Origin: Vulcanimicrobiota bacterium
Lineage (GTDB): Bacteria; Vulcanimicrobiota; Xenobia; Xenobiales; JADMJV01
Direction: 5' to 3'
Length of the DNA: 64,000 nucleotides
Assembly: GCA_050250895.1 (NCBI GenBank)
Contig: JBFWNU010000001.1
Coordinates: 3,251,557-3,315,556, forward strand
A program made the translations under genes and the position numbers. The notes under the pieces were generated by a model. That model was not told where the DNA came from and ran no database searches. It worked only from the letters and a program-made list of their open reading frames with translations. Of this stretch, positions 1,330-64,000 are shown one piece after another. Position 1 is the stretch's first letter, and every line of letters starts with the position of its first letter.

Positions 1330-3096
1330 TTAGATGGTCTGCGAGCGAAACATCAGGGCGTAGAGGCCATCGGCGGCTAGAAGCTGTTCGTGGTTGCCCT
1401 GTTCGACTACCCGGCCTTCGTGGAGCACGATGATTTTGTCGACGTTTTTCACGGTGGCCAGGCGGTGGGCGATGATGAGGGCGGTGCGGCCTTCCAGCAG
1501 CAGCTCGAGGGCTTCGTTGATGGCCGCTTCGGTCTTGCTGTCGATGCTGGCGGTGGCTTCGTCGAGGATGAGGATGCCGGGGTCGCGCGCCAGGGCCCGG
1601 GCGAACGACAGGAGCTGGCGCTCGCCCTGGGAGAGGTCGTTGCCGCCCTCGCCGATTTCGTGGTCGAGGCCTTTTTCGAAGCGGTTGACCACCTGGTCGG
1701 CCCGGCTCACGCGCAGGGCTTGTTCGAGACGCTGCTCGGAGAGGTCGGTGAACAGGGTCAGGTTGCGACGCACGTCGCCCGAGAAGAGGAAGAGGTCCTG
1801 GTGGACAAAGCCGATGCGGCTGCGCAGGTCGGCCACGTTCCAGTCCTCGAGCGATTGGCCGTCGACCTCGATGCGGCCACCATCGGGAGCGAGGGGATAG
1901 AAGCCGAGCAAGAGGCCGGTGATGGTGGATTTGCCCGAGCCGGTGGGGCCGACCAGCGCCACCTTCTGGCCGGGTTCGACCTCGAAGCTGACCTCGTGTA
2001 GAACCGGTTTCTCCGGGTCATAGGCAAAGCTGACCTGGTCGAAGCGCAGCGAGCCGGTGGGGTCCGGTCTTGCGCTGGGGCGGTCGAGGCCGGGTTCGGG
2101 CGGGCTGTCGAGGATGCGAAAGAGGCGCTCGGAGGCGATCACTGCCTTCTGGAAGACGTTGAACTTCTCGGCCATTTCCTGCAGGGGCGAAAACAGCATG
2201 CGCAGGTAGAACAGAAAGGCCACCAGGCCTCCCATGGTCAGGTCTCCTTCGAGAATCTGGCGGCCGCCGATGATGAGCACCAGGGCGCTGGCCAGGATTT
2301 CCGAGATGGCGAAGGCCGGACGGAACATGGCCTGACGGTGGATGATGTTCATCTCGTTGGTGTAGCACTCATGATTGAGCAGGGCGAAGCGCTCGCGCAT
2401 GACTTTCTGGGCCGACAACGACTTGATGATGGTGATGCCCTGGACGGTTTCTTGGAAGAAGGCGTTGACTCTAGCCAGCAAGACCCGCAGTTCGCGATAG
2501 AGTTCTTGCGAGACGCGCTTGAACCAGAACGTCAGAGCCACCAGAAAGGGGCAGAGCAGAAAGAGTATGGCGGTCAGACCGGGCTCGAGATAGAGCATCG
2601 CCAGGAGGATGCCGAAAAAGAGGAAGAAGTCGGCCAGCCCCGAGGCCAGCACGTTGGTGAAGAGTTCGGCCAGGGCATTGGTGTCGTTGGCGACCCGGGT
2701 GACCAGCCGGCCCACGGCGTTCTGGTCGAAGAACTTGATGGGCAGGCGGTGGAACTTGGCCCAGATGCGGGTTCGCATGCTGCGGACGACTCCCTGGCCC
2801 ACCCGGTTGAGACCCAGGGCGGTGGAGTATTCGATCACTAGTCCGGCCAGCAGCAATCCGATGTAGACGAGGGCCAGGTGCTGGAGGCCCTCGAGCCGGC
2901 CGGCGGTGGCTCCGGCGGCAACCATGAATCCGTCGATGCCGGCTCGGACCACCTGGGGCAGGGCCACTCGCACCATCGACGAGGCCAGCGAGCCGGCCAG
3001 GCAGGCAAACAGCAAGCCACGGCCAGTCAAGCTCTCGCTGAGCAGACGCCGCAGGTTGGCCCAGGCGGCTGGGCGTTCCAGGCGTTCTTCATCCAT
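1330..3096 (-). CDS. ABC exporter, fused permease/ATPase (MdlB-like)
   Basis: N-terminal TM domain, Walker A GPTGSGKS, signature LSQGERQ, Walker B ILILDEATASID. Confidence 0.93.
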   Translation of the reverse strand: MDEERLERPAAWANLRRLLSESLTGRGLLFACLAGSLASSMVRVALPQVVRAGIDGFMVAAGATAGRLEGLQHLALVYIGLLLAGLVIEYSTALGLNRVGQGVVRSMRTRIWAKFHRLPIKFFDQNAVGRLVTRVANDTNALAELFTNVLASGLADFFLFFGILLAMLYLEPGLTAILFLLCPFLVALTFWFKRVSQELYRELRVLLARVNAFFQETVQGITIIKSLSAQKVMRERFALLNHECYTNEMNIIHRQAMFRPAFAISEILASALVLIIGGRQILEGDLTMGGLVAFLFYLRMLFSPLQEMAEKFNVFQKAVIASERLFRILDSPPEPGLDRPSARPDPTGSLRFDQVSFAYDPEKPVLHEVSFEVEPGQKVALVGPTGSGKSTITGLLLGFYPLAPDGGRIEVDGQSLEDWNVADLRSRIGFVHQDLFLFSGDVRRNLTLFTDLSEQRLEQALRVSRADQVVNRFEKGLDHEIGEGGNDLSQGERQLLSFARALARDPGILILDEATASIDSKTEAAINEALELLLEGRTALIIAHRLATVKNVDKIIVLHEGRVVEQGNHEQLLAADGLYALMFRSQTI

Positions 3097-4822
3097 GCCC
3101 GACGCCCTCCAGATTCTGTAGGCGATAGAGGTCTCGATAGAGACCCGGACGGCTGATGAGCTGGCGGTGGGGTCCGTGGTCGACTACGCGGCCGTGGGCC
3201 AGTACCAACACCGTCTCGAGTTCGCTCACCGCCGAGAGGCGATGGCTGACGATCAGGCGGGTGCGCGGGGCCCCCTGGCGCCAGCTTTCCAGGATACGAT
3301 GCTCGGTTTGGTGGTCGACCGCCGAGAGAGTGTCGTCGAGCAACACGATGGGACACTCCTTGAGGAGGGCTCGGGCCAGGCACAGGCGCTGGCGTTGGCC
3401 GCCCGAGAGCGAGATGCCGCGCTCGCCCAGCAGGGTTTGGTAGCCCTTGGGAAAGGCCAGTACTTCAGCCTCGAGAGCGGCCCTGCGACACACCTCTTCG
3501 AGCTCTTCGAAGGGCACCTCGGCGGCGGCCAGGCGAAGGTTGGCCTCGATCGTGTCCGAGAAAAGGAAGGCCTCTTGCGAGACCCAGGAAAACTGGGCGC
3601 GCAACTGGGCTAGGTTCATGGTGGTGATGTCGACCCCGTCCAGGAAGATGGTCCCGGGCGGCGGCTCGAAGAAGCGATTGAGCAACAGCAGCAGGGTCGT
3701 TTTGCCGCTGCCGACTTCGCCCACGATACCCAGGCTGTGACCGGCCGGCAGGGTGAACGACACGTCGCGCAGGGCCGGTTGGTCGGCTTTGGGATAGGTG
3801 AAGGTCAGGTTGCGCACCTCGAGTTGGCCGGCAAAGTCATGCTCGATGACCGGCAGAGGGATCTCCTCGGGAAGGTCCAGTAGATTCTGCACGCGGTTCA
3901 TCGACACCGCCCCGCGCTGAATCAAGACGAACATCCAGCCGGCCGCGATCATGGGCCAGGTGAGCTGGGCCAGATAGGTGGTGAAGGCGGCGAAGGTTCC
4001 CACCGTGGTCAGTCCGTTGACCACCCGGGCACCGCCAATGAGCAACAACAGGGCCGTGGAGCTGCCGGCGAAAATCATGATCAGCGGGCGGAAAGTGGCG
4101 TCGGTGCGGACATAGGCCATGTTGAGGGTGAAATATTCCTGGTTGAGACGCTCGAAGTCGCGGTTGTCGCCGTCGGCGGCTCCGGCCGCCCGCAGCACCC
4201 GCATGCCCTGGATGCTCTCGCGGACTTTCTCGGTGAGGCGCTCGAAACTGGCCTGGACTCCGTCATACAGATGATAGATGCGGCGCAGGGCAAAGCCCAT
4301 CACCAGCCCCAAAATGGGGAGCGGCAAGATGGCCCAGAGCGTCAGCCGCCAGTCGAGCCACAGCATGGCCGAGATGGTCATGGCGCTGAAGAACAACGAG
4401 TCGAAGAGAGCCAGCAGTCCGAAGGCCAGCGCTTGTTTGATTGAATCGACATCGTTGGTGGCCAGGGCCAGAAACTCGCCGATACGGGTCTCCTGGTGTT
4501 GGCGGGTCGACAGGGCCAGAGCCTTTTCTAGGATGGCGTTGCGGATCTCGACCTCGGCCAGCCGCGAGGCGCTCATCAAGAAGTGACGCCACCACACCTT
4601 GGCCACGAAGCTGGCCGCGGCCAGACCCACCAGAATCATGCCGGACCGGGTCAGTCCGGGGGTGGTGGCCTCCCCCAGACTGAGGGCGTCCACGGCCTCC
4701 TTGACCACCAGCGGCACGAACAGCTGGGCTACGTCGGCGCCGATGACTCCCAACAAGCCGAGAAAGACCAGCCACCGCCGCTGCCACAGGTGGCGACCCA
4801 GGCCTTTGAGTCCCTCACTCAT
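3089..4822 (-). CDS. ABC exporter, fused permease/ATPase (MdlA-like, degenerate site)
   Basis: GEVGSGKT, LSGGQRQR, LLDDTLSAVD. Start set at MSEGLKG (ATGA overlap with the upstream gene) rather than the ORF-track start. Confidence 0.92.
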   Translation of the reverse strand: MSEGLKGLGRHLWQRRWLVFLGLLGVIGADVAQLFVPLVVKEAVDALSLGEATTPGLTRSGMILVGLAAASFVAKVWWRHFLMSASRLAEVEIRNAILEKALALSTRQHQETRIGEFLALATNDVDSIKQALAFGLLALFDSLFFSAMTISAMLWLDWRLTLWAILPLPILGLVMGFALRRIYHLYDGVQASFERLTEKVRESIQGMRVLRAAGAADGDNRDFERLNQEYFTLNMAYVRTDATFRPLIMIFAGSSTALLLLIGGARVVNGLTTVGTFAAFTTYLAQLTWPMIAAGWMFVLIQRGAVSMNRVQNLLDLPEEIPLPVIEHDFAGQLEVRNLTFTYPKADQPALRDVSFTLPAGHSLGIVGEVGSGKTTLLLLLNRFFEPPPGTIFLDGVDITTMNLAQLRAQFSWVSQEAFLFSDTIEANLRLAAAEVPFEELEEVCRRAALEAEVLAFPKGYQTLLGERGISLSGGQRQRLCLARALLKECPIVLLDDTLSAVDHQTEHRILESWRQGAPRTRLIVSHRLSAVSELETVLVLAHGRVVDHGPHRQLISRPGLYRDLYRLQNLEGVGHG

Positions 4823-54334: not shown

Positions 54335-54370
54335 CTGGTTAGCCCGCCCTCCAGGACCGGGTGGAAGGCC

Positions 54371-54397
54371 TTAAGCAAAGGCTGCACCCGCCGATAA
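54371..54397 (+). promoter_or_regulatory. Sigma28 (FliA) promoter
   Basis: TTAA-N15-GCCGATAA directly upstream of a chemoreceptor gene. Confidence 0.8.
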
Positions 54398-54426
54398 CCT
54401 CGTCATCTTCAACTGGGGGTGCGCCG

Positions 54427-55760
54427 ATGGGATTTGGTAGCGAGGAGCTGACGTCTGCTCAAGTGGTGGAACTGATCGATGCGTGGATTGCTGGCGACCT
54501 GGCTCGCCAGGTGGAGGGGACCGACGAGCTTTCGCGGGCTCTGGCCCGACTGGGTGACCACTTGCGCCGGAATGCGCAAGTCCATCTGGCCCGCACCGTC
54601 ACCCTCTCGGTTGACCTCAACGACACCGCCCGGACCTTCGGCCAGTTGTTCACCGACCTGCGCGGGATCCAGGACCAGACCAATCAGAGCGCCGCCGCCG
54701 CCGAGCAGATGTTGTCCGCGGCTGACCATGTCTTGCAGAGCACGGAGCTGATCGCCGGTCAGGCCGAGCACACGCGCCAACTGATGGACGAGGGATCGCG
54801 GCGGCTCACGGCCAGCACCGACCGGATCGAAGCCATCGTCGAGGCCACCAACCAGGTGCAGAGGAAGGTGGGCGACTTGCTCGATCTTTCCAAGGAGGTG
54901 CGGCGGATCTCGGCCTCCATCAGTCAGATCGCCAATCAGACCAATTTGCTTGCTCTCAATGCCACCATCGAGGCGGCCCGGGCCGGAGAGTCGGGCGAGG
55001 ATTCGCGGTAGTGGCCGGCGAGGTCAAGAACCTGGCCCAGCAAACCGACCGGGCCACCAAGGACATCGAGACTATCGTCGGACGCATTCAGAGCGAGGTG
55101 CTCGAGATCGCCTCGTCGGCGGAGTTGAGCCAGAAGGCGGTCCGCGACGGACAATCTTCGGTCAACTCGGTGGCCCAGGACATCGGGGGGGTCAAATCAA
55201 GGGTCGACGAGATCGTCACCCAGATCGCCTCGATCGCGCAGCTGTTTTCCGAACATCGCGCCGCTGGCCACCAGGTGGCCACCTCGGTGGTCGACATCAC
55301 TGTCGCCAATCAGGCCTCGCTCGAGGGCGTGCAGGCGGTGGCCCAGACCATGAATGCCCTCGAGAAGACCATTCTCGAGCAACTCGACGAACTCTCGCGC
55401 CTGGAGTTGCCGGGCAAGGTGGTGCAACTGGCCAAGTCCGATCACGTCATCTGGAAAAAGCGCCTGGCCATGATGGCGGTCGGCCAACTGCAGCTCGATC
55501 CTAAGGAACTGGCCGACCATCACTCTTGTCGTTTGGGGCGTTGGTACGACCAGCAGTGCGACCGTCGTCTCACCGGTCATCCCGCTTTTGCGGCCCTGGC
55601 CGACCCCCACCAGCGGGTGCACGCGCACGGCATTCGGGCTGCTCAGCTCATGACCGACGGTCAGGCCGAGGCCGCCGATCACGAACTGGCGTTGATGGAG
55701 AAGGCGTCAGAAGAGGTCATGCGACACCTCACCGCCCTCGAACAGACTGCGCGCGAATAG
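54427..55760 (+). pseudogene. Soluble methyl-accepting chemotaxis protein with C-terminal CZB domain; 1-nt frameshift near 54996
   Basis: QTNLLALNATIEAARAGESG in one frame continues as GFAVVAGEVKNLA in another; CZB motif DHVIWK...DHHSCRLGRWY...HQRVH. Confidence 0.85.
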
Positions 55761-57015: not shown

Positions 57016-57446
57016 ACGCGCTCGACCATCGAGACGTGCACCGACTCGTTGCTCGAGTAGTGCCAATGGTCGACCTCGATCAGGTCGCCGTGCAGTTCGA
57101 CCCGCACGAAGTCGCGGGAACTCTGGCTGCGCGTCGCCTGGACGAAGATGGTCGGCTGCTCGGTGGCGCTCGAGGTCAGGGCGAGTTGCAGGCCGTTCTG
57201 ACTGTCGAGGCGGCAGACGCGCACATCCGGCTCGGGGCTCAGCATCGGCAGGCCCTCGAAACAGCTGACGAATTCACCTAGATTGACGGTGCCGGACAAA
57301 ACCGGGGCCACATCGAGCACTCGATCGATGGCCGAGCCATCTTCACTGACGGCGTAACGGCGCAGGTCGAGAGTGTGATCGGAGGAGGACGGCCGGTCCT
57401 CGCGGACGGCGTCGAAGTGGCGTGTGACACAGCTAGGTAGACTCAT
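57012..57446 (-). CDS. Hypothetical protein
   Basis: 144-aa GC3-biased frame preceded by the shared cis-motif. Confidence 0.6.
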   Translation of the reverse strand: MSLPSCVTRHFDAVREDRPSSSDHTLDLRRYAVSEDGSAIDRVLDVAPVLSGTVNLGEFVSCFEGLPMLSPEPDVRVCRLDSQNGLQLALTSSATEQPTIFVQATRSQSSRDFVRVELHGDLIEVDHWHYSSNESVHVSMVERV

Positions 57447-57455
57447 CTTGAGCTT

Positions 57456-57487
57456 AGCCTATCAGGGGGGCCTTAAAGATCTTTAGA
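57456..57487 (-). promoter_or_regulatory. Shared cis-motif copy
   Basis: Minus strand TCTA-N7-TTAAG-N10-TAGGCT, 9 nt before ATG 57446. Confidence 0.55.
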
Positions 57488-57553
57488 AGTTTCTGGGTCA
57501 GACTTTGCCGGCATGTTACACGGATGTGAAGAGAATGTTGCCCGGCGCGGGGA

Positions 57554-57952
57554 CTAGATTGTCGTGACAACTCTCGAATTGATGATGCGCTGGTCCGAGG
57601 TCAACAGGGTAGCCCCCTCCAGAATAGCTGTCGAGACGATGAGGCGATCCGCCGGGTCGCGGTGAAAGCTCTCCGGGAGGCTGGCTACTTGAGCGGCAAT
57701 AGCCGGGGTCACGGGACAGCGACGCACCAGCGGCGGAGCGGTGGCGCATTCTAGCCAATCTCGAAGGGGACGCTCCAGTCGAAGCCTGCCAAGCATTGCG
57801 AGGGTCGCCACCTCCCAGAGACTGATGTTCGCGACGAGTAGGGGAGAGCGGTTGACTCGGGCCTTTCGAAGAATGACGTCTTGCGCCTTGGAGAGCCGTC
57901 CCTGGTCTTCAAACCACCAGACCAGGATATGAGTGTCCAGTAGATAGGTCAA
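57554..57952 (-). CDS. vapC: PIN-domain toxin
   Basis: LLDTHILVWW, SLWEV, HRDPADRLIVSTA, LLTSD; TTGA overlap with the antitoxin. Confidence 0.92.
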   Translation of the reverse strand: MTYLLDTHILVWWFEDQGRLSKAQDVILRKARVNRSPLLVANISLWEVATLAMLGRLRLERPLRDWLECATAPPLVRRCPVTPAIAAQVASLPESFHRDPADRLIVSTAILEGATLLTSDQRIINSRVVTTI

Positions 57953-58197
57953 GGCAACTCTGCTTCCGCTTCCCATTCGCTGGGATTGAGGACCGGTGAG
58001 ACGATGTCACCCAAGATGGTGACGCTTCCGAAGAGAGCGTCCTGTGGCAAGCCATCGTCTCGCGGCGTGGCGGGGACCAACTGTGCGACCGGCTTGCCAC
58101 GCTTGAGGATGGTCAGCGGTTGGCCCGTTTTGGCGACCTCGTCGAGCAGCGCCAGGCATTTGGCTTTAAAATCGGATGCGTTGATCGAATGTTCCAT
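57949..58197 (-). CDS. Phd/YefM-family antitoxin
   Basis: INASDFKAKCLALLDEV...TILKRGKPVAQLVP. Confidence 0.92.
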   Translation of the reverse strand: MEHSINASDFKAKCLALLDEVAKTGQPLTILKRGKPVAQLVPATPRDDGLPQDALFGSVTILGDIVSPVLNPSEWEAEAELP

Positions 58198-58198
58198 G

Positions 58199-58232
58199 TG
58201 ACCAGTCTAATTGACTGGTCAGCGTTTGTCGA
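58199..58232 (-). promoter_or_regulatory. Toxin-antitoxin promoter with palindromic operator
   Basis: TGACCAGTC-N5-GACTGGTCA at 58199-58221; minus strand TCGACA-17-TAGACT; ATG 6 nt downstream. Confidence 0.8.
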
Positions 58233-58680
58233 GCAGGCTCCGGATCTCGGCCACCAGGGCGTCTACCGCCTGGCGCTGCTGCTCGGAAGTGGCCAGTTGC
58301 TGGGCCAGTTCGTCCCAGCGTTCGAGGTTGCGGGCCCGAGCCGCCTGATTCTGGCTGGCTACATGGCGACGGTGGTCTTCGGTGCGCACCAACCACTCAT
58401 ACAGGACCGCCGCTCGAGGTCGCTGGATGGGAGGTAAGTCGGGCTCGATGGGATCGCCGGGAAACTCGGCCGGCGGCTGATTCTCGAGGGCGTCGAAATA
58501 GCGCACCAGGTCGCCGAAGGCGGCCTCAGGCTCAGCCAGCGTCGGGCTTTCGAGCAGGCCACGGAGTTGCTCTTTGCCGGCCGCGGACAGATCGAGACGC
58601 AGCGCCTGATCGTAGACGAAGACCAGATTGAGCAGGTCGATGCCCTGGCGCAGGTTCTGAAAGAGTTCTTCGAGGATCAT
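58219..58680 (-). CDS. Helical hypothetical protein; candidate immunity/partner of the giant protein
   Basis: 153 aa; ATG at 58680 overlaps the stop of the upstream gene (ATGA). Confidence 0.65.
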   Translation of the reverse strand: MILEELFQNLRQGIDLLNLVFVYDQALRLDLSAAGKEQLRGLLESPTLAEPEAAFGDLVRYFDALENQPPAEFPGDPIEPDLPPIQRPRAAVLYEWLVRTEDHRRHVASQNQAARARNLERWDELAQQLATSEQQRQAVDALVAEIRSLLDKR

Positions 58681-61600
58681 TGGCCGTTGACCCAATTCAG
58701 ATAGTCTCGCACCACCGGGATCTGGTGGGTGTAGCGAGTGGCCTCGGCATAGGCGCGATCGATCTGCTCACCCTGGAAGCCGTAGGGGATTTGCTGGTTG
58801 TATTCGAGGGCCGGGGTATCCAGGCCGGCCGGATCCACCGGACTCTGGCGCAGACCGTAGTTGTTGACCGGCGCCCCGGCGTTATCGACTTGCCCCAGCC
58901 AGGCCCGGTTGGCTTTGTCGCGGAAGAACATATACTGCAGCTTCCCGTCAGCCGAGGGGAAAACCTCGGCCGAGACCTCGCCGTGGAGGGGGTGCTGGAA
59001 AGTGAAGCGGTCGCTGGCCCCGTTGGAGAAGTTGGGGGCCTGCTCGGGGTTGTAGAAACGGAACGAAGTGGGATCGTTTTTGTCGGCAAACTCGCCCAGC
59101 TTGAGGCCTTTGTCCATCTGGTTGATAAAGCCCTCGGGAGGCAGGTGTCCTCCCAGCTCGAGACCTCCATAGAAGGCTTGCTGGGAGGCCTCGGGCGAGA
59201 GGTTGAGGCGGGGTTGCTCGGCCATGCGGAAGAGTTCTTTCTGGAGCGAGGCAGGCAGGTTGGTGCTGGTTTCGCCCAGGCCTTTGCCGATCCAGCCGTT
59301 GCCGCCACCGTGGCTGGCCGAACGATACAGGCCCTGCGAGTTGCTCTGATAGAACAGGCGCTGGTGGATCTCGCCGCTCTTGGGATCCTTGACGTAGCCG
59401 ATGAAAGCCGAGCGACCGTCGCGCTCGAACGGCTTGGAGAGATACATTTCGGTATCCCCCACCTTGAGCTTGGTGGCGGGGCCCAGACCGTTCTGCTGGA
59501 GAAACTCGGGGGTGAGCGCCTGGGCGCCTCCGGGACGCATTTCGGATTGGGGAATGCGGGCCTGCTTGACCACTCGGGCGGCCTCGTCGGGCGAAACCTG
59601 CTCGACCGGCAGACTGTGAGGAGTTTCGCCCACCTTCGGAGGCGTGTCGAGCTTGGGCACCCGGTTGGGTCGCATGACCTGATCGGTGCCCATGCGGAAG
59701 CTGCCGTCGGGAGGCAACTCGGTCCACTGGTTGGCTTGCAGGCGCTTGCCGTTGACGAAGGTGCCGTTGGAGGAGCCCACATCGCGGATCATGAGATGGC
59801 CGTTCTCGACCTTGATCTCGGCGTGCTCGCGACTGACGCTGGGGGCGTCCATACCGTGGCTACGCCCGAGTTTGCGCACCGAGCCGTCGGTGGGAATGTC
59901 GAGCGACTGGCCATTGGGCCCGGTCAGCCGATAAGGGTCGCCCGCTTTGATCGGCCCGGGCTGGCTGAGCCGGCGCTGGGCTTGCAGACCTTGCAGGTTG
60001 AGTTCCTGGTTGGCCAGGCGCAGGCGAGCTTCGGGAGGCACGTTGACCCACTCGTCGGGCTTGAGACGTTGGCCGTCGAGATAGCTGCCCGAGGTCGAGT
60101 TGAGATCGCGAACCTGCAGCTGGCCGTCCTGCATGCGGAACTGGGCGTGGCGGCGGCTGACCCCCAGGTCGTCGGCTCCGAAGATCTGACCGTCTTCGCC
60201 AGGCGCGCGGCCCACGGTAATGGGCGAGCCGTCGTGGGGCACGCGCAGGTTGGGCCCGTTGGGGGTGCCGATCTCGAGCGCCTGGGCGGCGCTGGCGCCA
60301 GCCGTGCCGCCCACAGGCGTGGCGCTCAGAGCGTGGTTGGGCCCGAAGGTCAGCTTGCCCTCGCCCACGTTGACCCATTGCTCGGGATCAAGGCGCTGGC
60401 CGTCGAGATAGGTGCCCGAGGTCGACTTGAGGTCGCGCACCTGCAGTTGCCCTTCGTGCACCCGCATCTCGGCGTGGCGGCGGCTAACGCTGAGGTCCTC
60501 GCGACCGATGGTGAGCCCGCCCTCGCCCGGACTGCGGCCGATGACCCGGGCCTGGCCGTCGCCGGGAATGAAGATCTCTTCGCCCAGCTGATTGCGCACG
60601 CGATAGTCGCGGTCGCGGGGAAGGTTCAGCTGGCCGTCGGTGCTGCGGTCGATGTGGCGCATACCGTCGAGGGACACCACGTCGCGCTTGCCGTCGGGGA
60701 ACTTGGGATCGTCGGAGAATTTCCAGCCGGTGCCGGTGTGGCCGTCGACATCGTAAGACAGGTACTTGCCCGACGGAGCCTTGTAGACGGCATCCTTACC
60801 CTCGCCGATCTTCTCCAGCCCCATCTTGTCGGCCAGAGCTTGCTTCTCGGCGGCCTCGAGATTGAGGGTGACGCCACCGCTTTCGGTCACGCGCACGCCG
60901 TTGGGCTCGAAAGCCTTGCGCTTGATCAGGTCCATGACGTCCTGGTGCACGCCTTTGACATCGGCCGCGCTGGCCTTGGGGTCGACGAGCTTCTGATAGG
61001 CGGCCACGCCATCCGGGCCGTATTGGCCCACGGCTAGCAGGTTCTTGTGATCCGGCACGCCCGGGATGGAAGGCGGAGCCCCTCCGGCCGTAGAGGGATC
61101 GACCATACGCTGGAATTTGTCGAACTGGCCCAGGGTTTCGTTGCCCTGCAGCTGCTTCCAGGTGCGGAACTTCTCGGCGCCCAGCTCTTTCTGCATGCGA
61201 GCGTCGATGTCTTTGGCCGACATGCCGTCTTTGCGCCACCTGCCGAGTTCGCCGCGCAGGTTCTTGTCGAGGGTCGAGTCGGCCATCTCGCCAAAGCGCT
61301 GCTGCATCTCGCTGCGATAGGCACCAAAGTCGACATTCTCTCCACCCAGGCGGCGTCGGGCGATGGTGTCCACGGTCTGGTCGCGCAGCATGCGATTGAA
61401 ATCTTGCTCGAGGCCGGCCTGTTGGGCGGCCTGTTGCCATTTGCGCAACTGAGCGGCCGACCCCTGAGCCAGCGGATCCTGGATCTGGTCGGCAAAGGCC
61501 GTTCGCATGCGGTCGTCGAGGTTGTCGCGCACCCAGTCGTCGCCGAAGTTGCGCCGGGCGTACTCGCGAGCGGCCAGCAGTTCTTGGGGCGAGGTGCCCT

Positions 61601-64000
61601 CGTTAGAGTAGCGGGTCTGGCGCTGGTCGAACTTCTGCAGGATGTCGTCTTTGACCACCTGAGGTTCGTCTTTGACGAACTCGTCCCAGGTTTTGCGAGT
61701 GGCGTCGTCAAGGCCGCGAATCTCGCCCTCGTTGTTGAGCCGCAACTCGCCCGTGTCGCCGTCGGTGGTCTGGCGCGGGGGAGTGGGCTCGGCCTGGTCG
61801 TGAGCGGCCCGATGGGCCTGCTCGCGCTCGCGCAACCGGTCCAGGGCCTCGCTGTTCTGCTCGCCCCCAGACTTGGGCTTCTTGGTCTTCTCCAGGCGCT
61901 CGAGATAGTTGTCGACGAAGTCATGGCCGCCGGCTTCGGCGCGATGCTCGGCCAGGCTATTCTCGTAGGCTTTGCGGGCTTTGGCAATCTCTTCGGGCGG
62001 GGCGTTGTTGGCCCGCAAATCTTCCAGTCGGCGAGCGGCCTGGTTGGTGTCTTGCAAGGCTCCGCGCAGGGCCCGGTCGCCGTTGGGCCCAGAGGCGGCT
62101 CGAATATCGACCACGTGCTTGAGCTCGTGGCCAAAGTCGTGAGCGAGCACCCGGCCGTTGGCATCCACCGGCATGAACATCTGGATACGCCCATCGGCCC
62201 CGCGGGTGACGTGGGGGGTAGTGATGCGATTACCCTGGGCGTCGACCCCGGTGTGGATGTCGACATCCTTCATGAAGCCGGGGTCGATCCCGCGCTCCTT
62301 CAGGTAAGCATTGGCCTGGTTGGGTAGCTCATCACCGGCGATGCGCAGCTTCGAGGTGCGGGGCGCGTCTTGCGTCAGGCTGGCGGGAGCGTCCACTCCC
62401 TTGCCGCGGAACAGGGCCGGCATGCCTGCCCCCACCGTGCCGCCGATCACGCCGCCGATAGCGCCGCCCGCCAGGGTGCCCTGACCGAGCCGTCCCAGGC
62501 CGGTCGAAAAGCCATCGCGCCAGGTGGCCTCATCGAGGGCGGTGTTGGTGAAACCACCGGCCGCCCCGCCCAGGGTTCCTTCGGTGAAGCCGATGGCGCC
62601 CATGGTGGCCATCCGTCGCATCAGCGGGTTCTGCAAGCCGATGCGTCCCAGGGCGTTGCTGATGGGGCCGCCCAGCTTGCCCACCGAGATACCGGCGGTG
62701 GCTCCGTCGATGGCTCCCACGGCCACGTCGCGGAAGCTGTCTTCCCAGTTGTAGCCGTTGCCCTGCATCACCAGACGCGTGCCGAAGTTGGTGGCGGCGC
62801 CGGCCGCCGCCGCCGTGCCGGCCACCGCCAGCACCGGCGCAGCCGTACCCGCCGAGCCGACCACGATGGCAGTGGTGACGGCGGCGGTGCCCACTGTGGC
62901 AGCCACATCGGTGACCCCGTCCTTGTTGCTGCGGTAAGCCTTGATCTGGCTTTCACCCGATTGGGCCAGGCTCCACAGGCGTTCGAGTTTCTTCTTGTCC
63001 TCGGGCTTGTCGCTCTTGAGTAGCCCTTCGATCTTGTCGCGTCCACCCAACTCCTTGACGTAGGCGTTGAGTTCGCGATTGGCGTTGTCGAGACCGCGGC
63101 CCACAGCCTGATCGCCCGCCACACCCATCATGGCGCGCCATCCCAGGCTGCCCATGCCGCGCTCGTAGTCGAAGCGATCTCTGAATTGATCGTAAGCTTC
63201 GAGAGCGTTCTCGGGTTTGCCCTTGAGGGCCATGCGGATCTCGAAGTCGTTGCGTCCGGAGAAGTCCCCCAGCAGATCGTTGTCGAGGGTGGCGCCTTCA
63301 TAACCGCTGTCGGTGGCAAATTGGGCGTAGTCTTCCCGAAGCTTGGCGACTTCGGCCTTGCTACGGCCGTCCATGACCCGATGCACCGAATCCTCGTCGG
63401 TACCAAGGCCGCGCACTGCGAAGAACAGCTCCTGGGCGTCGGTGAGCTTGCCGTTCTTCATCAGCAGATCCATGCGCTGGCGCTCGTAGCCCGAGGTCTC
63501 GCCGCGAACATCCGATTTGAAGTCGCTACGGTACTGGCTTTGGTACGACTCGCGCATCTTCTGCTGGAAGTCGGCCGAACCCGTTTGAGCGACATCGCGC
63601 AGGGCCACCTCGTCGGTGCCCGCCCCGCTCCAGGGCCAGAAGTTGCTGCCTTTCATGGCGTAGCGGGCGCGGGCCGCTTCGGCCTTGGCCATGTCGTTGT
63701 CGAGCAGCCCCTCGAAGCGATCCTTGAGCGGGCCGCGCGAGCCCAGGCTCCACTCCTTCATGGCATCGCTGTGCATCTTCGACTGCCGCCAATCGACATC
63801 GCGCAGACCGCTGCCGTAGAGGCCTTCATACTCTTTAATAATCTGCTTGCGCTCGTCGTGGGTCATGGTCGACAGATCGCGATAGACGCTGTCGGCGTCA
63901 GTGCCCCAGCCCGACACGAAGGTACTGCCATCGCCCTGCATGGCGTAGCGGATATTGGCCGCCCGGGCTTTGGCCTCATTGCCTTCGAGCAGGGCCAGCG
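58677..64000 (-). CDS. Giant multidomain protein (5' end outside window): annexin-like repeats, Gly-rich TM region, HExxH, Ntox21-like toxin, 3 FHA domains, unknown C-terminal domain
   Basis: Frame stays open to 64000 (LALLEGNEAKARAANIRYAM). GxGTD motifs x3; GHELKH; YLSYDVDGHTGTGWK; GR...VSRxHA...DxxSxxG x3. Confidence 0.85.
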   Translation of the reverse strand, partial: LALLEGNEAKARAANIRYAMQGDGSTFVSGWGTDADSVYRDLSTMTHDERKQIIKEYEGLYGSGLRDVDWRQSKMHSDAMKEWSLGSRGPLKDRFEGLLDNDMAKAEAARARYAMKGSNFWPWSGAGTDEVALRDVAQTGSADFQQKMRESYQSQYRSDFKSDVRGETSGYERQRMDLLMKNGKLTDAQELFFAVRGLGTDEDSVHRVMDGRSKAEVAKLREDYAQFATDSGYEGATLDNDLLGDFSGRNDFEIRMALKGKPENALEAYDQFRDRFDYERGMGSLGWRAMMGVAGDQAVGRGLDNANRELNAYVKELGGRDKIEGLLKSDKPEDKKKLERLWSLAQSGESQIKAYRSNKDGVTDVAATVGTAAVTTAIVVGSAGTAAPVLAVAGTAAAAGAATNFGTRLVMQGNGYNWEDSFRDVAVGAIDGATAGISVGKLGGPISNALGRIGLQNPLMRRMATMGAIGFTEGTLGGAAGGFTNTALDEATWRDGFSTGLGRLGQGTLAGGAIGGVIGGTVGAGMPALFRGKGVDAPASLTQDAPRTSKLRIAGDELPNQANAYLKERGIDPGFMKDVDIHTGVDAQGNRITTPHVTRGADGRIQMFMPVDANGRVLAHDFGHELKHVVDIRAASGPNGDRALRGALQDTNQAARRLEDLRANNAPPEEIAKARKAYENSLAEHRAEAGGHDFVDNYLERLEKTKKPKSGGEQNSEALDRLREREQAHRAAHDQAEPTPPRQTTDGDTGELRLNNEGEIRGLDDATRKTWDEFVKDEPQVVKDDILQKFDQRQTRYSNEGTSPQELLAAREYARRNFGDDWVRDNLDDRMRTAFADQIQDPLAQGSAAQLRKWQQAAQQAGLEQDFNRMLRDQTVDTIARRRLGGENVDFGAYRSEMQQRFGEMADSTLDKNLRGELGRWRKDGMSAKDIDARMQKELGAEKFRTWKQLQGNETLGQFDKFQRMVDPSTAGGAPPSIPGVPDHKNLLAVGQYGPDGVAAYQKLVDPKASAADVKGVHQDVMDLIKRKAFEPNGVRVTESGGVTLNLEAAEKQALADKMGLEKIGEGKDAVYKAPSGKYLSYDVDGHTGTGWKFSDDPKFPDGKRDVVSLDGMRHIDRSTDGQLNLPRDRDYRVRNQLGEEIFIPGDGQARVIGRSPGEGGLTIGREDLSVSRRHAEMRVHEGQLQVRDLKSTSGTYLDGQRLDPEQWVNVGEGKLTFGPNHALSATPVGGTAGASAAQALEIGTPNGPNLRVPHDGSPITVGRAPGEDGQIFGADDLGVSRRHAQFRMQDGQLQVRDLNSTSGSYLDGQRLKPDEWVNVPPEARLRLANQELNLQGLQAQRRLSQPGPIKAGDPYRLTGPNGQSLDIPTDGSVRKLGRSHGMDAPSVSREHAEIKVENGHLMIRDVGSSNGTFVNGKRLQANQWTELPPDGSFRMGTDQVMRPNRVPKLDTPPKVGETPHSLPVEQVSPDEAARVVKQARIPQSEMRPGGAQALTPEFLQQNGLGPATKLKVGDTEMYLSKPFERDGRSAFIGYVKDPKSGEIHQRLFYQSNSQGLYRSASHGGGNGWIGKGLGETSTNLPASLQKELFRMAEQPRLNLSPEASQQAFYGGLELGGHLPPEGFINQMDKGLKLGEFADKNDPTSFRFYNPEQAPNFSNGASDRFTFQHPLHGEVSAEVFPSADGKLQYMFFRDKANRAWLGQVDNAGAPVNNYGLRQSPVDPAGLDTPALEYNQQIPYGFQGEQIDRAYAEATRYTHQIPVVRDYLNWVNGQ

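Follow-up and report, generated by a model that had tools for sequence, protein, structure and literature searches.

A 4,019-residue annexin-bearing mosaic protein of Vulcanimicrobiota ends in an FHA-linked domain with a translationally coupled partner gene

Annexin domains have been described on bacterial toxin proteins that also carry a zinc peptidase of the DUF4157 or Photorhabdus virulence cassette (PVC) type (PMC3482391 and PMC3894181). Annexin repeats on such toxin-type proteins are known from sequence surveys only, and a role in membrane passage is a guess. Here we describe a gene that joins annexin repeats to forkhead-associated (FHA) domains and a C-terminal domain of its own family. 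It lies at the edge of a 64,000-nucleotide stretch (the window) of a Vulcanimicrobiota genome (assembly GCA_050250895.1, contig JBFWNU010000001.1, positions 3,251,557 to 3,315,556). Its product, which we call the giant protein, is a real, lineage-specific mosaic of 4,019 amino acids; it belongs to the species level and is not a conserved gene. We favour, with a probability of about 0.42, the reading that it is a membrane-targeted, polymorphic-toxin-like conflict effector of which the working end would be the C-terminal domain, held in check by the product of the next gene.

The first-pass annotation of the window had noted a frame of more than 1,770 amino acids, of unstated strand, that remains open past the window edge. 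The frame lies on the minus strand, open from window position 63998 to a TGA stop at 58677–58679 (1773 amino acids). Retrieval of the 5′ end places the ATG 2,246 codons further upstream in the genome, giving a full protein of 4,019 amino acids (L003:2234-14293, minus strand), more than twice the part within the window. No stop interrupts the frame over 12 kb, and the GC content of third codon positions (0.72–0.85) stands against that of second positions (0.40–0.68) in all 11 segments tested, so that the gene looks coding over its entire length. The contig measures 3.9 Mb in a genome of 9.5 Mb (99.6% complete) that has more than 50 open reading frames (ORFs) of at least 1,500 amino acids. On the whole protein Pfam assigns 129 bits to three FHA stretches, 102 bits to five Annexin stretches and 28.8 bits to one RHS repeat, with Ntox21 at 20.0 bits, below its cut-off of 25; NCBIfam adds only partial FHA- and YD-type matches. 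The annexin-type repeats, the three FHA domains, the Ala/Gly-rich stretch, the DVDGH segment and the GHELKH motif with its downstream Glu had all been placed correctly by the first-pass annotation, and the tail of about 290 residues that it listed without a function is real and conserved, at 307 residues. The parts of the gene within the window and the gene that follows it are these:

58677–64000, minus strand: 3′ part of the giant gene (44%; 1773 codons and the stop); the remaining 2,246 codons at the 5′ end lie beyond the window at L003:7558-14293, minus strand.
63219–63998, minus strand: annexin repeats 3–5 of five (PF00191), with G-T-D loops at residues 2278, 2373 and 2445; repeats 1 and 2 are outside the window.
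62409–62918, minus strand: Gly/Ala-rich hydrophobic region, residues 2607–2776, from Kyte–Doolittle windows; a 45-residue stretch of hairpin length, then a 23-residue stretch.
61833–62357, minus strand: HExxH module, residues ~2794–2968, a candidate zinc peptidase; it begins TSKLRI..., with FGHELKH at 2868–2874, then LAEHRAEAGGHDF downstream.
60837–61832, minus strand: orphan, mostly helical stretch, residues ~2969–3300, without a paralog and with no relative outside close strains.
60702–60836, minus strand: Ntox21-like segment, residues 3301–3344 (PF15526, 20.0–27.9 bits, model positions 2–50 of 71).
59676–60584, minus strand: three FHA domains, residues ~3385–3687 (PF00498, 3 stretches; paralog matches).
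58680–59600, minus strand: tail domain, residues 3713–4019 (307 residues), a family of its own, from an AlphaFold2 (AF2) model and alignments A1 and A4.
58219–58680, minus strand: partner gene of 153 codons, helical product of no known family; its ATG (58680–58678) overlaps the TGA of the giant gene (ATGA; CAATGA).

Several of these parts occur independently of one another. Within its own genome (BLASTP against 21,653 ORFs), the giant protein has paralogs only for residues 2079–2749 (1,672-amino-acid ORF on contig 2, 32% identity), residues 2776–2970 (2,202-amino-acid ORF on contig 9, hereafter C9, 46% identity), the FHA domains, residues 3601–4018, covering FHA and tail (824-amino-acid ORF on contig 10, 37% identity), and residues 3746–4015, covering the tail alone (432-amino-acid ORF on contig 4, 35% identity). 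For wider comparison we used 41 related genomes, titled Vulcanimicrobiota or Eremiobacterota (class Xenobia), 40 genomes of the order and a sample of 301 genomes of the phylum. The central stretch, residues 2777–3385, was found in 1 of the 40 order genomes, namely its own, which together with the separate occurrence of the modules marks the giant protein as a species-level mosaic; the gene was not found in the single other genome of the genus that was searched. An independent 503-amino-acid fragment from another assembly (P0003, 86% identity) has the same order of parts, the Ntox21-like segment followed by three FHA domains. No RNA run was listed for the stretch; the contigs of the one DNA run, X1, are pieces of a relative, no single one of which spans the whole stretch; one covers window positions 61192–62426 at about 89% identity, and together with P0003 they carry junctions or pieces of the giant at 86–95% identity.

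The C-terminal end of the protein comprises the FHA domains and the tail. FHA domains contact phosphothreonine through the Arg of a GR motif, the Ser and His of SxxH and the Asn of an SxNG loop. PF00498 matches three stretches (129–133 bits, 129.2 for the whole giant; cut-off 20.7), all three of which have GR and S-R-x-H; the corresponding loops read STSGT and STSGS in the first two domains and SSNGT in the third. An alignment of ten tail sequences has a mean column identity of 51%, with invariant polar residues Y84, S88, K106, S216 and Y267 (domain numbering). The AF2 model of the tail has a predicted local distance difference test score (pLDDT) of 93.3 and a predicted TM score (pTM) of 0.90. 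Foldseek returned 0 matches in the PDB at E ≤ 0.001. The only structural matches of the tail are three uncharacterised proteins of Indivirus, Hokovirus and Klosneuvirus in BFVD (A0A1V0SDE5, A0A1V0SF17 and A0A1V0SKW6, of the Klosneuvirus group; E 9e-9 to 9e-7, TM 0.47–0.55, ~12% identity). By sequence, none of 72 stretches in IMG/VR viral contigs and none of 613 candidates among proteins of near length belonged to the family, and an ESM Atlas search with the tail gave no usable match.

Tail proteins are patchily distributed. A set of 5.8 billion proteins held 36 members of the family among 3,063 candidates, 22 of them with FHA domains, all named only ‘FHA domain-containing’ or ‘hypothetical’ and drawn from Eremiobacterota/Vulcanimicrobiota/Xenobia and one Planctomycetes assembly; nine FHA-less members contain no Pfam domain. 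The last ~540 residues of the giant match free-standing genes of 570–612 amino acids (two FHA domains and the tail) in 5 of the 41 relatives, and two more relatives have a match to the tail alone. Across the phylum sample the tail profile detects 8 of 301 genomes. Six of the 15 other genomes of the family have it, as does one of three from a second family, whereas all 207 genomes of the largest family lack a match. There are three copies in the genome of the giant and none in one other searched genome of the genus (98% complete). The third copy, the 432-amino-acid ORF on contig 4 (G000:C4:240053-241351, L014), has an unrelated N-terminal part and lacks a downstream partner, and could represent an orphan or a cassette in decay. 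Judging by these homologs, the FHA domains and the tail are one pre-existing unit with its own partner gene, a point missing from the first-pass annotation. Of the candidates for a working end this unit is the best, ahead of the internal nuclease-like segment.

The partner was noticed as a downstream ORF of 158 codons with weak tblastn matches exactly downstream of tail genes at four loci. At seven of nine loci a homologous ORF of 137–170 amino acids starts −3 to +4 nucleotides from the stop of the tail gene; of the remaining two, one has just 60 nucleotides of downstream sequence and the other, the contig-4 copy, has no homolog. The partner profile detects 8 of the 41 relatives, the same eight genomes as the tail profile, and the two genes adjoin in 8 of 9 pairs; in the ninth a contig end separates them. 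Because both profiles derive from these very sequences, what is informative is that neither gene turned up by itself elsewhere. A model of the tail–partner complex scores 0.87, compared with 0.21 for the best of three controls; 58 of 80 solved complexes attain the mark for this score, as do 2 of 110 mismatched pairs, counts that are only approximate because the alignments were our own. The runs have at least 83% of their contacts in common, the partner pLDDT is at least 87, and S88, K106 and Y267, three of the five polar residues that are invariant in the family, lie in the predicted interface. The model supports binding of the partner to the tail, and the overall pattern makes the two a candidate toxin–immunity or enzyme–inhibitor pair. 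We did not find this pair in print, nor a terminator-like site in window positions 57400–58800.

The annexin repeats and the hydrophobic region behind them form a second recurrent unit. PF00191 scores 54.6 bits in three stretches of the window part and 102.3 bits in five stretches of the whole protein (cut-off 25). The five repeats span residues 2080–2560, with G-T-D motifs at residues 2109, 2196, 2278, 2373 and 2445, and each appears to have the GxGT(D/E) loop of a type II calcium site. Hydrophobic stretches follow at residues 2607–2651 and 2754–2776. This annexin/hairpin module (residues ~2080–2780) matches 11 proteins of relatives and one paralog (BLASTP, 24–36% identity) and is common to the giant and at least 14 other large proteins with differing flanks. 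The 11 frames from relatives are 1,208–2,719 amino acids long; all contain annexin (1–5 stretches, Pfam), two end in DnaJ, and a weak Peptidase_C39_2, an RHS repeat and a weak LysM match occur once each. Among 8,000 scored candidates from a large protein database, the only longer protein with the hairpin region was P0042 (3,488 amino acids), which shares the unit at 25% identity over 688 residues.

We compared the regions behind the hairpin all-against-all for 15 proteins of this family. The HExxH module is common to the giant and C9, and the last domain to C9 and L025; seven proteins have one C-terminal domain of ~330 amino acids in common, four are unique and one is cut by a contig end. A common carrier with alternative C-terminal domains, as in polymorphic toxin systems, is therefore present, with the qualification that 7 of the 15 end in the same domain. 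The first-pass annotation had proposed to look for homologs that share the annexin and membrane part but have swapped downstream domains; this recurring module with differing flanks answers to that, and the picture is of a patchy, lineage-specific gene, not of invariant domain content in a housekeeping context. The C-terminal domains of the contig-2 paralog, C2, and of C9 had been likened to calpain (RNPWG) and ParB (DGNHR), readings that we dropped as they found no support in Pfam (E ≤ 1), NCBIfam or phmmer searches of the PDB. Four annexin/hairpin proteins (L015, L024, L020 and L019) have a similar Gly/Pro/Met-rich N terminus with a motif like LFLGPPMF and no signal peptide, which may be a lineage-specific N-terminal domain or a sorting signal.

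Directly behind the hydrophobic region, in both the giant and C9, lies the HExxH module (51% identity, alignment A5). FGHELKH begins at residue 2868 (window ~62115–62135; HELKH, 2870–2874) and LAEHRAE follows ~55 residues past HELKH; both motifs are conserved in C9. The family now called eCIS_core, after extracellular contractile injection systems (eCIS), was formerly DUF4157. The ‘PVC-metallopeptidase’ of PMC3482391 corresponds to it, and the HExxH helix with a downstream Glu that belongs to PVC-metallopeptidase/eCIS_core is present here. A profile of the module has no meaningful match in the PDB. Releasing peptidases of polymorphic toxins sit at such a position (PMC3482391), which makes the module a candidate for such a role by its placement; its scores leave it outside eCIS_core.

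The first-pass annotation had read the segment at residues 3301–3344 as an Ntox21-like RNase and had given D-x-DGH-x-G-x-WK as the hallmark of that family. The signature in print is a different one, namely K, [DS]xDxxxH, K, RxG[ST] and RxxD (PMC3482391), and the solved member, Enterobacter cloacae CdiA-CT (4NTQ), is ColE3-like and cuts 16S rRNA with an active site of D203/D205/H207/K214 (PMC9086364). In the giant, D3329-x-D3331-x-H3333-(5)-K3339 lies at window 60720–60752, within YDVDGH (from residue 3328). S3327-Y-D3329-V-D3331-G-H3333 followed by K3339 fits [DS]xDxxxH and the Lys, with a His–Lys spacing one residue shorter than in 4NTQ; R-H-I-D fits RxxD, and RxG[ST] was not seen in residues 3340–3385. 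A six-frame search of the genome with PF15526 gave 27.9 bits (E 2.8e-5 per genome), and no other Ntox21 match in the 301 phylum genomes exceeds the cut-off; the next best reach 19.5 and 17.9 bits, in frames of 74 and 49 codons. The RNase assignment is borderline: the motif and the six-frame score speak for it, the missing RxG[ST] and the hmmscan scores below the cut-off against it. The statement of the first-pass annotation that the nuclease-like segment is internal was right, as 675 residues are still to come after it.

Other approaches to the segment gave mixed results. In the ESM Atlas the nearest neighbours of a 99-amino-acid piece are small toxin-domain clusters (Ntox30, 0.92; Ntox17, 0.91; Ntox21, 0.91), and the ‘Novel toxin 21’ cluster shares 183 of 256 features; the top matches disagree on the family, and a recognition value of 1838, below the 2300 mark, makes this weak evidence for Ntox kinship. 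The AF2 model of the segment (166 amino acids, two-sequence alignment) is not usable (mean pLDDT 45.3, pTM 0.30), for which reason no fold search was made with it; at this low confidence it shows a helix, then short strands. A phmmer search of the PDB with the segment gave nothing significant (collagen adhesin, E 1.6–1.8; toxin A repeats, E 0.13). The Y-x-x-Y-D-x-x-G of the segment also resembles YD repeats elsewhere in the giant. No Imm41- or Barstar-type immunity family was found by Pfam among the ORFs neighbouring the giant. Two weak, independent signals, the Pfam model and the language-model neighbours, hint at a small toxin-type domain around DVDGH. True kinship of the segment to Ntox21-type domains is in our judgement an even call, and that it is an active RNase we consider doubtful.

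The N-terminal half of the giant offers few landmarks. Residues 1–230 are Lys-rich without a hydrophobic signal; residues 230–420 are a tandem array of a 12-amino-acid KPAxEAKPAPxA unit (36-nucleotide period, 15.1 copies); and residues 420–2080 have no paralog and a single Pfam family, one YD repeat (RHS_repeat, residues 1746–1771). The long YD array and RHS core of an RHS/YD shell were not found, this one RHS_repeat stretch being all that matched, and ~1,700 residues of this half have no relatives. In both the giant (repeats at L003:13061-13603) and C9 (L016) a Lys/Arg-rich tract opens the protein, and long low-complexity repeats in tandem come next; the repeat types differ (KPAxEA, 15 times, in the giant and ANPPANGQ-type in C9) and the remainders of the two N-terminal halves are unrelated. 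Residues ~470–540 of the giant (P0002), AAYLPDNGGTVLMSQAL...EEAGHHLD...GDEG, presumably resemble an N-terminal motif of large secreted repeat proteins, a likeness for which Pfam gave nothing at E ≤ 1.

From the anatomy, the independent occurrence of the modules, the strict co-occurrence and adjacency of tail and partner and a complex model that stands up to its controls, we infer how the protein might work. The five annexin repeats would bring the giant to a membrane, into which the Gly/Ala-rich hydrophobic hairpin would insert. The HExxH...E module directly behind the hairpin may then cut off the downstream part. That part would be cargo: possibly a small Ntox21-type RNase, together with the three FHA domains and the 300-residue tail. 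The FHA–tail unit is probably an older, self-standing two-gene module that was later fused to the carrier. The partner would bind the tail over the conserved S88/K106/Y267 face and act like an immunity protein or inhibitor, and the FHA domains would steer or gate the tail through phosphothreonine proteins. Export or delivery, release by proteolysis, any toxicity, an RNase activity and a target all belong to this conditional part of the proposal.

Four points tip the balance slightly towards a delivered effector: the peptidase-like module is placed as in toxins, the Ntox21 match does not look random, annexins on toxins have a precedent, and modules are shuffled. The patchy, multi-copy distribution of the tail is as in conflict systems. 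Other evidence weighs against this reading. Self-translocation or secretion, as the first-pass annotation supposed, found no direct support: no signal peptide, TPS (two-partner secretion), PAAR, LXG or other known trafficking domain was found in the giant (Pfam, NCBIfam) or in any of the 15 annexin/hairpin proteins, and the N termini of these are polar, with no hydrophobic signal. Neither a phage-type sheath (PF04984, E ≤ 0.01) nor a type VI secretion system sheath (PF05943) was found in the 99.6%-complete genome, in a search that covered these two sheath families. The neighbours of the giant (a Phd/YefM–PIN pair, unknown ORFs and a glutathione S-transferase (GST), by Pfam) offer no secretion context, and free-standing FHA–tail proteins start without an export signal. 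The hydrophobic stretch is of hairpin length, which would put both flanks on the same side of the membrane, and the variable domains of the annexin/hairpin proteins are of cytoplasmic type (FHA, DnaJ). The best Pfam match of the HExxH module, eCIS_core PF13699, reaches only 14.0 and 15.2 bits against a cut-off of 22, and sub-threshold matches of comparable score occur in 10 of 14 control genomes. One C-terminal domain in 7 of 15 proteins means that the polymorphism of the family is limited, and searches of Pfam, NCBIfam and PADLOC assign neither tail nor partner to a family of immunity, toxin or defence proteins. For the Ntox21-like segment, hmmscan gives 21.7 bits with the window part and 20.0 with the whole protein (E 2.7e-4 and 9e-4; cut-off 25), the last third of the PF15526 model (positions 51–71), which holds RxG[ST], is unmatched, and the best, non-significant PDB match (E 0.13) is to beta-hairpin repeats. 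Among 1.84 billion representatives phmmer found only one true relative, the 86%-identical 503-amino-acid fragment, plus two repeat artefacts.

Much of this evidence would be expected if the giant were never exported, which is the main rival reading and in our view only somewhat less likely. The hairpin and annexins would then anchor it at the cytoplasmic face of the membrane of its producer, with the FHA–tail unit as a kinase-gated intracellular effector held off by the partner, a design that would recall FHA outputs in pathways of threat sensing or abortive defence, and the Ntox21-like stretch would be a diverged remnant or a YD-type hairpin. Besides the absence of export signals across the family, the hairpin length, the cytoplasmic variable domains and the patchy tail and partner, FHA outputs with many alternative effector domains have been published for kinase-based threat sensing (PMC13622651), and the beta-hairpin neighbour of the segment has a counterpart in the YD repeat elsewhere in the giant. 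However, the genes next to the giant and next to two free-standing loci that were scanned include no kinase or phosphatase, PADLOC has no matches, an intracellular effector assigns no role to ~2,000 N-terminal residues with their YD repeat and TonB-like Pro/Lys/Ala repeats, the zinc-peptidase-like module placed as in toxins is left unexplained, and the Ntox21 match is unlikely to be chance, being the one above the cut-off among 301 genomes. That same match, with its D-x-D-x-H...K constellation (PMC9086364), the ‘Novel toxin 21’ neighbours and a proposed annexin role in breaching membranes (PMC3482391) would suit an internal, active 16S rRNase of the colicin E3 kind as the main toxin, carried by the annexin and hydrophobic parts with the FHA domains and tail as accessories. 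We think this unlikely, given scores that straddle the cut-off, a missing C-terminal third of the model, a single ortholog fragment as the only phmmer relative, a pLDDT of 45.3, a low Atlas recognition value with disagreeing top matches, and an internal position without an immunity gene of its own, the sole coupled downstream gene pairing with the tail. An equally unlikely and more novel reading is that the tail and its ATGA-coupled partner are a new toxin–immunity or enzyme–inhibitor family dependent on phosphothreonine through FHA, and the annexin/hairpin unit a portable carrier across prey membranes that needs no secretion system. The tail fold would in that case be one shared, by its predicted model, with Klosneuvirus-group proteins and not with solved structures; the cargo, of cytoplasmic type, would consist of FHA–tail, J domain, peptidase-like domains and a small RNase; and the prey, of large-genome Eremiobacterota, would perhaps be eukaryotic. 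For relatives with large genomes in a sister family a predatory way of life has been suggested (PMC9259500). Lastly, the modules have paralogs in the same genome and the gene was not found in the one other genome of the genus, as an assembly chimera or a decaying, functionless fusion might look. We judge this highly improbable: paralogs of merely 32–53% identity are too distant to mislead an assembler, the frame has no stop in 12 kb and keeps its GC3 throughout, the contig is 3.9 Mb long, and P0003 and the X1 contigs hold the same junctions or pieces.

Returning to the delivered effector, the wider genomic setting is as follows. Two features adjoin the partner gene:

57949–58197, minus strand: Phd/YefM antitoxin gene, half of a type II toxin–antitoxin pair, directly after the partner gene.
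57554–57976, minus strand: PIN-domain gene, the other half of this Phd/YefM–PIN pair.

A promoter-like site at 58232–58204 precedes the pair. Two other giant ORFs hold the only TPS domains of the genome (6,732 amino acids at G000:C12:11765-31963 and 1,836 amino acids at G000:C1:3120064-3125574), by which the genome has what appear to be type Vb-style giant exoproteins apart from the giant described here. The neighbours of the two scanned free-standing FHA–tail loci (LytR_cpsA_psr, GST, FHIPEP/HTH, pentapeptide and a pilin-like gene) are not common to both, and neither includes a kinase or phosphatase gene. Synteny of the giant locus with the free-standing loci through a nearby GST was considered and rejected, as identity between the GSTs is only 29% across 111 residues and the second neighbour shows no relation. 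The recognizable cargo domains, FHA and DnaJ, act in a cytoplasm, whether that of the producer or of a target. Elsewhere in the window (54361–55760, plus strand), two abutting ORFs of 216 and 249 amino acids (common base 55011) look, from their translations, like halves of one methyl-accepting-type signalling protein.

These proteins come from a phylum with hardly any studied proteins. At least 15 large proteins with a fixed annexin–hairpin unit and swapped flanks make a defined system in which the role of annexins in passage could be tested. FHA, tail and partner are a compact two-gene module: its fold model is confident, the predicted partner is inhibitor-like, and giant viruses alone supply structural relatives. 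If the FHA domains do gate a toxin, Ser/Thr-kinase signalling would be linked directly to an effector domain.

Among described systems, the giant is most like the annexin-bearing PVC/eCIS-type toxins of Haliangium ochraceum and Microscilla marina (Zhang et al. 2012, PMC3482391; Kodavali et al. 2014, PMC3894181). Common to both are annexin on a long bacterial protein, a module resembling an HExxH zinc peptidase and toxin-type domains further downstream, as well as modules shuffled between paralogs and, often, the lack of a classical immunity gene family. Those toxins have an N-terminal DUF4157/eCIS_core peptidase, a single annexin before the C-terminal enzyme and a contractile injection locus nearby, whereas the HExxH of the giant is sub-cut-off and lies behind five annexins and the hairpin, no sheath gene was found, and the C terminus consists of three FHA domains and a tail domain with a partner. 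With E. cloacae CdiA-CT, the founder of Ntox21 (PDB 4NTQ), and colicin E3 it shares D-x-D-x-H followed by Lys and a small alpha+beta segment, predicted at low confidence; it differs in the shorter His–Lys spacing, the last model third and RxG[ST] that were not found, the internal position, the lack of a CdiI/Imm41/Barstar-type gene, and a segment with no phmmer relative in the PDB and one ortholog fragment among the 1.84 billion representatives.

The FHA end resembles the outputs of kinase-based threat sensing (EsrG, PMC13622651, and Kaur, Iyer and Aravind 2020 cited there), in which FHA is joined to interchangeable effectors with a patchy distribution. No kinase, MoxR or vWA genes lie beside the loci examined here, and the threat-sensing FHA protein is small and soluble, whereas one copy of the present unit is fused to a 3,400-residue membrane-type carrier. 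Tail and partner recall type II toxin–antitoxin or toxin–immunity pairs in the small, translationally coupled gene, the strict co-occurrence and the partner predicted on a conserved face; they depart from type II pairs in that the domain comes first and the partner second, in a domain of ~300 residues without a solved structural relative, and in the partnerless copy on contig 4. The first-pass annotation had taken the whole combination for a candidate new architecture. This stands for the addition of FHA, in that the matches listed contained no paper beyond PMC3482391 and PMC3894181 that joins FHA, annexin and polymorphic toxins, and the supplementary tables of these two may list closer architectures; it does not stand for annexin, zinc peptidase and toxin domains, which are already in print together (in the same two papers). 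The newer element is the module of tail and partner.

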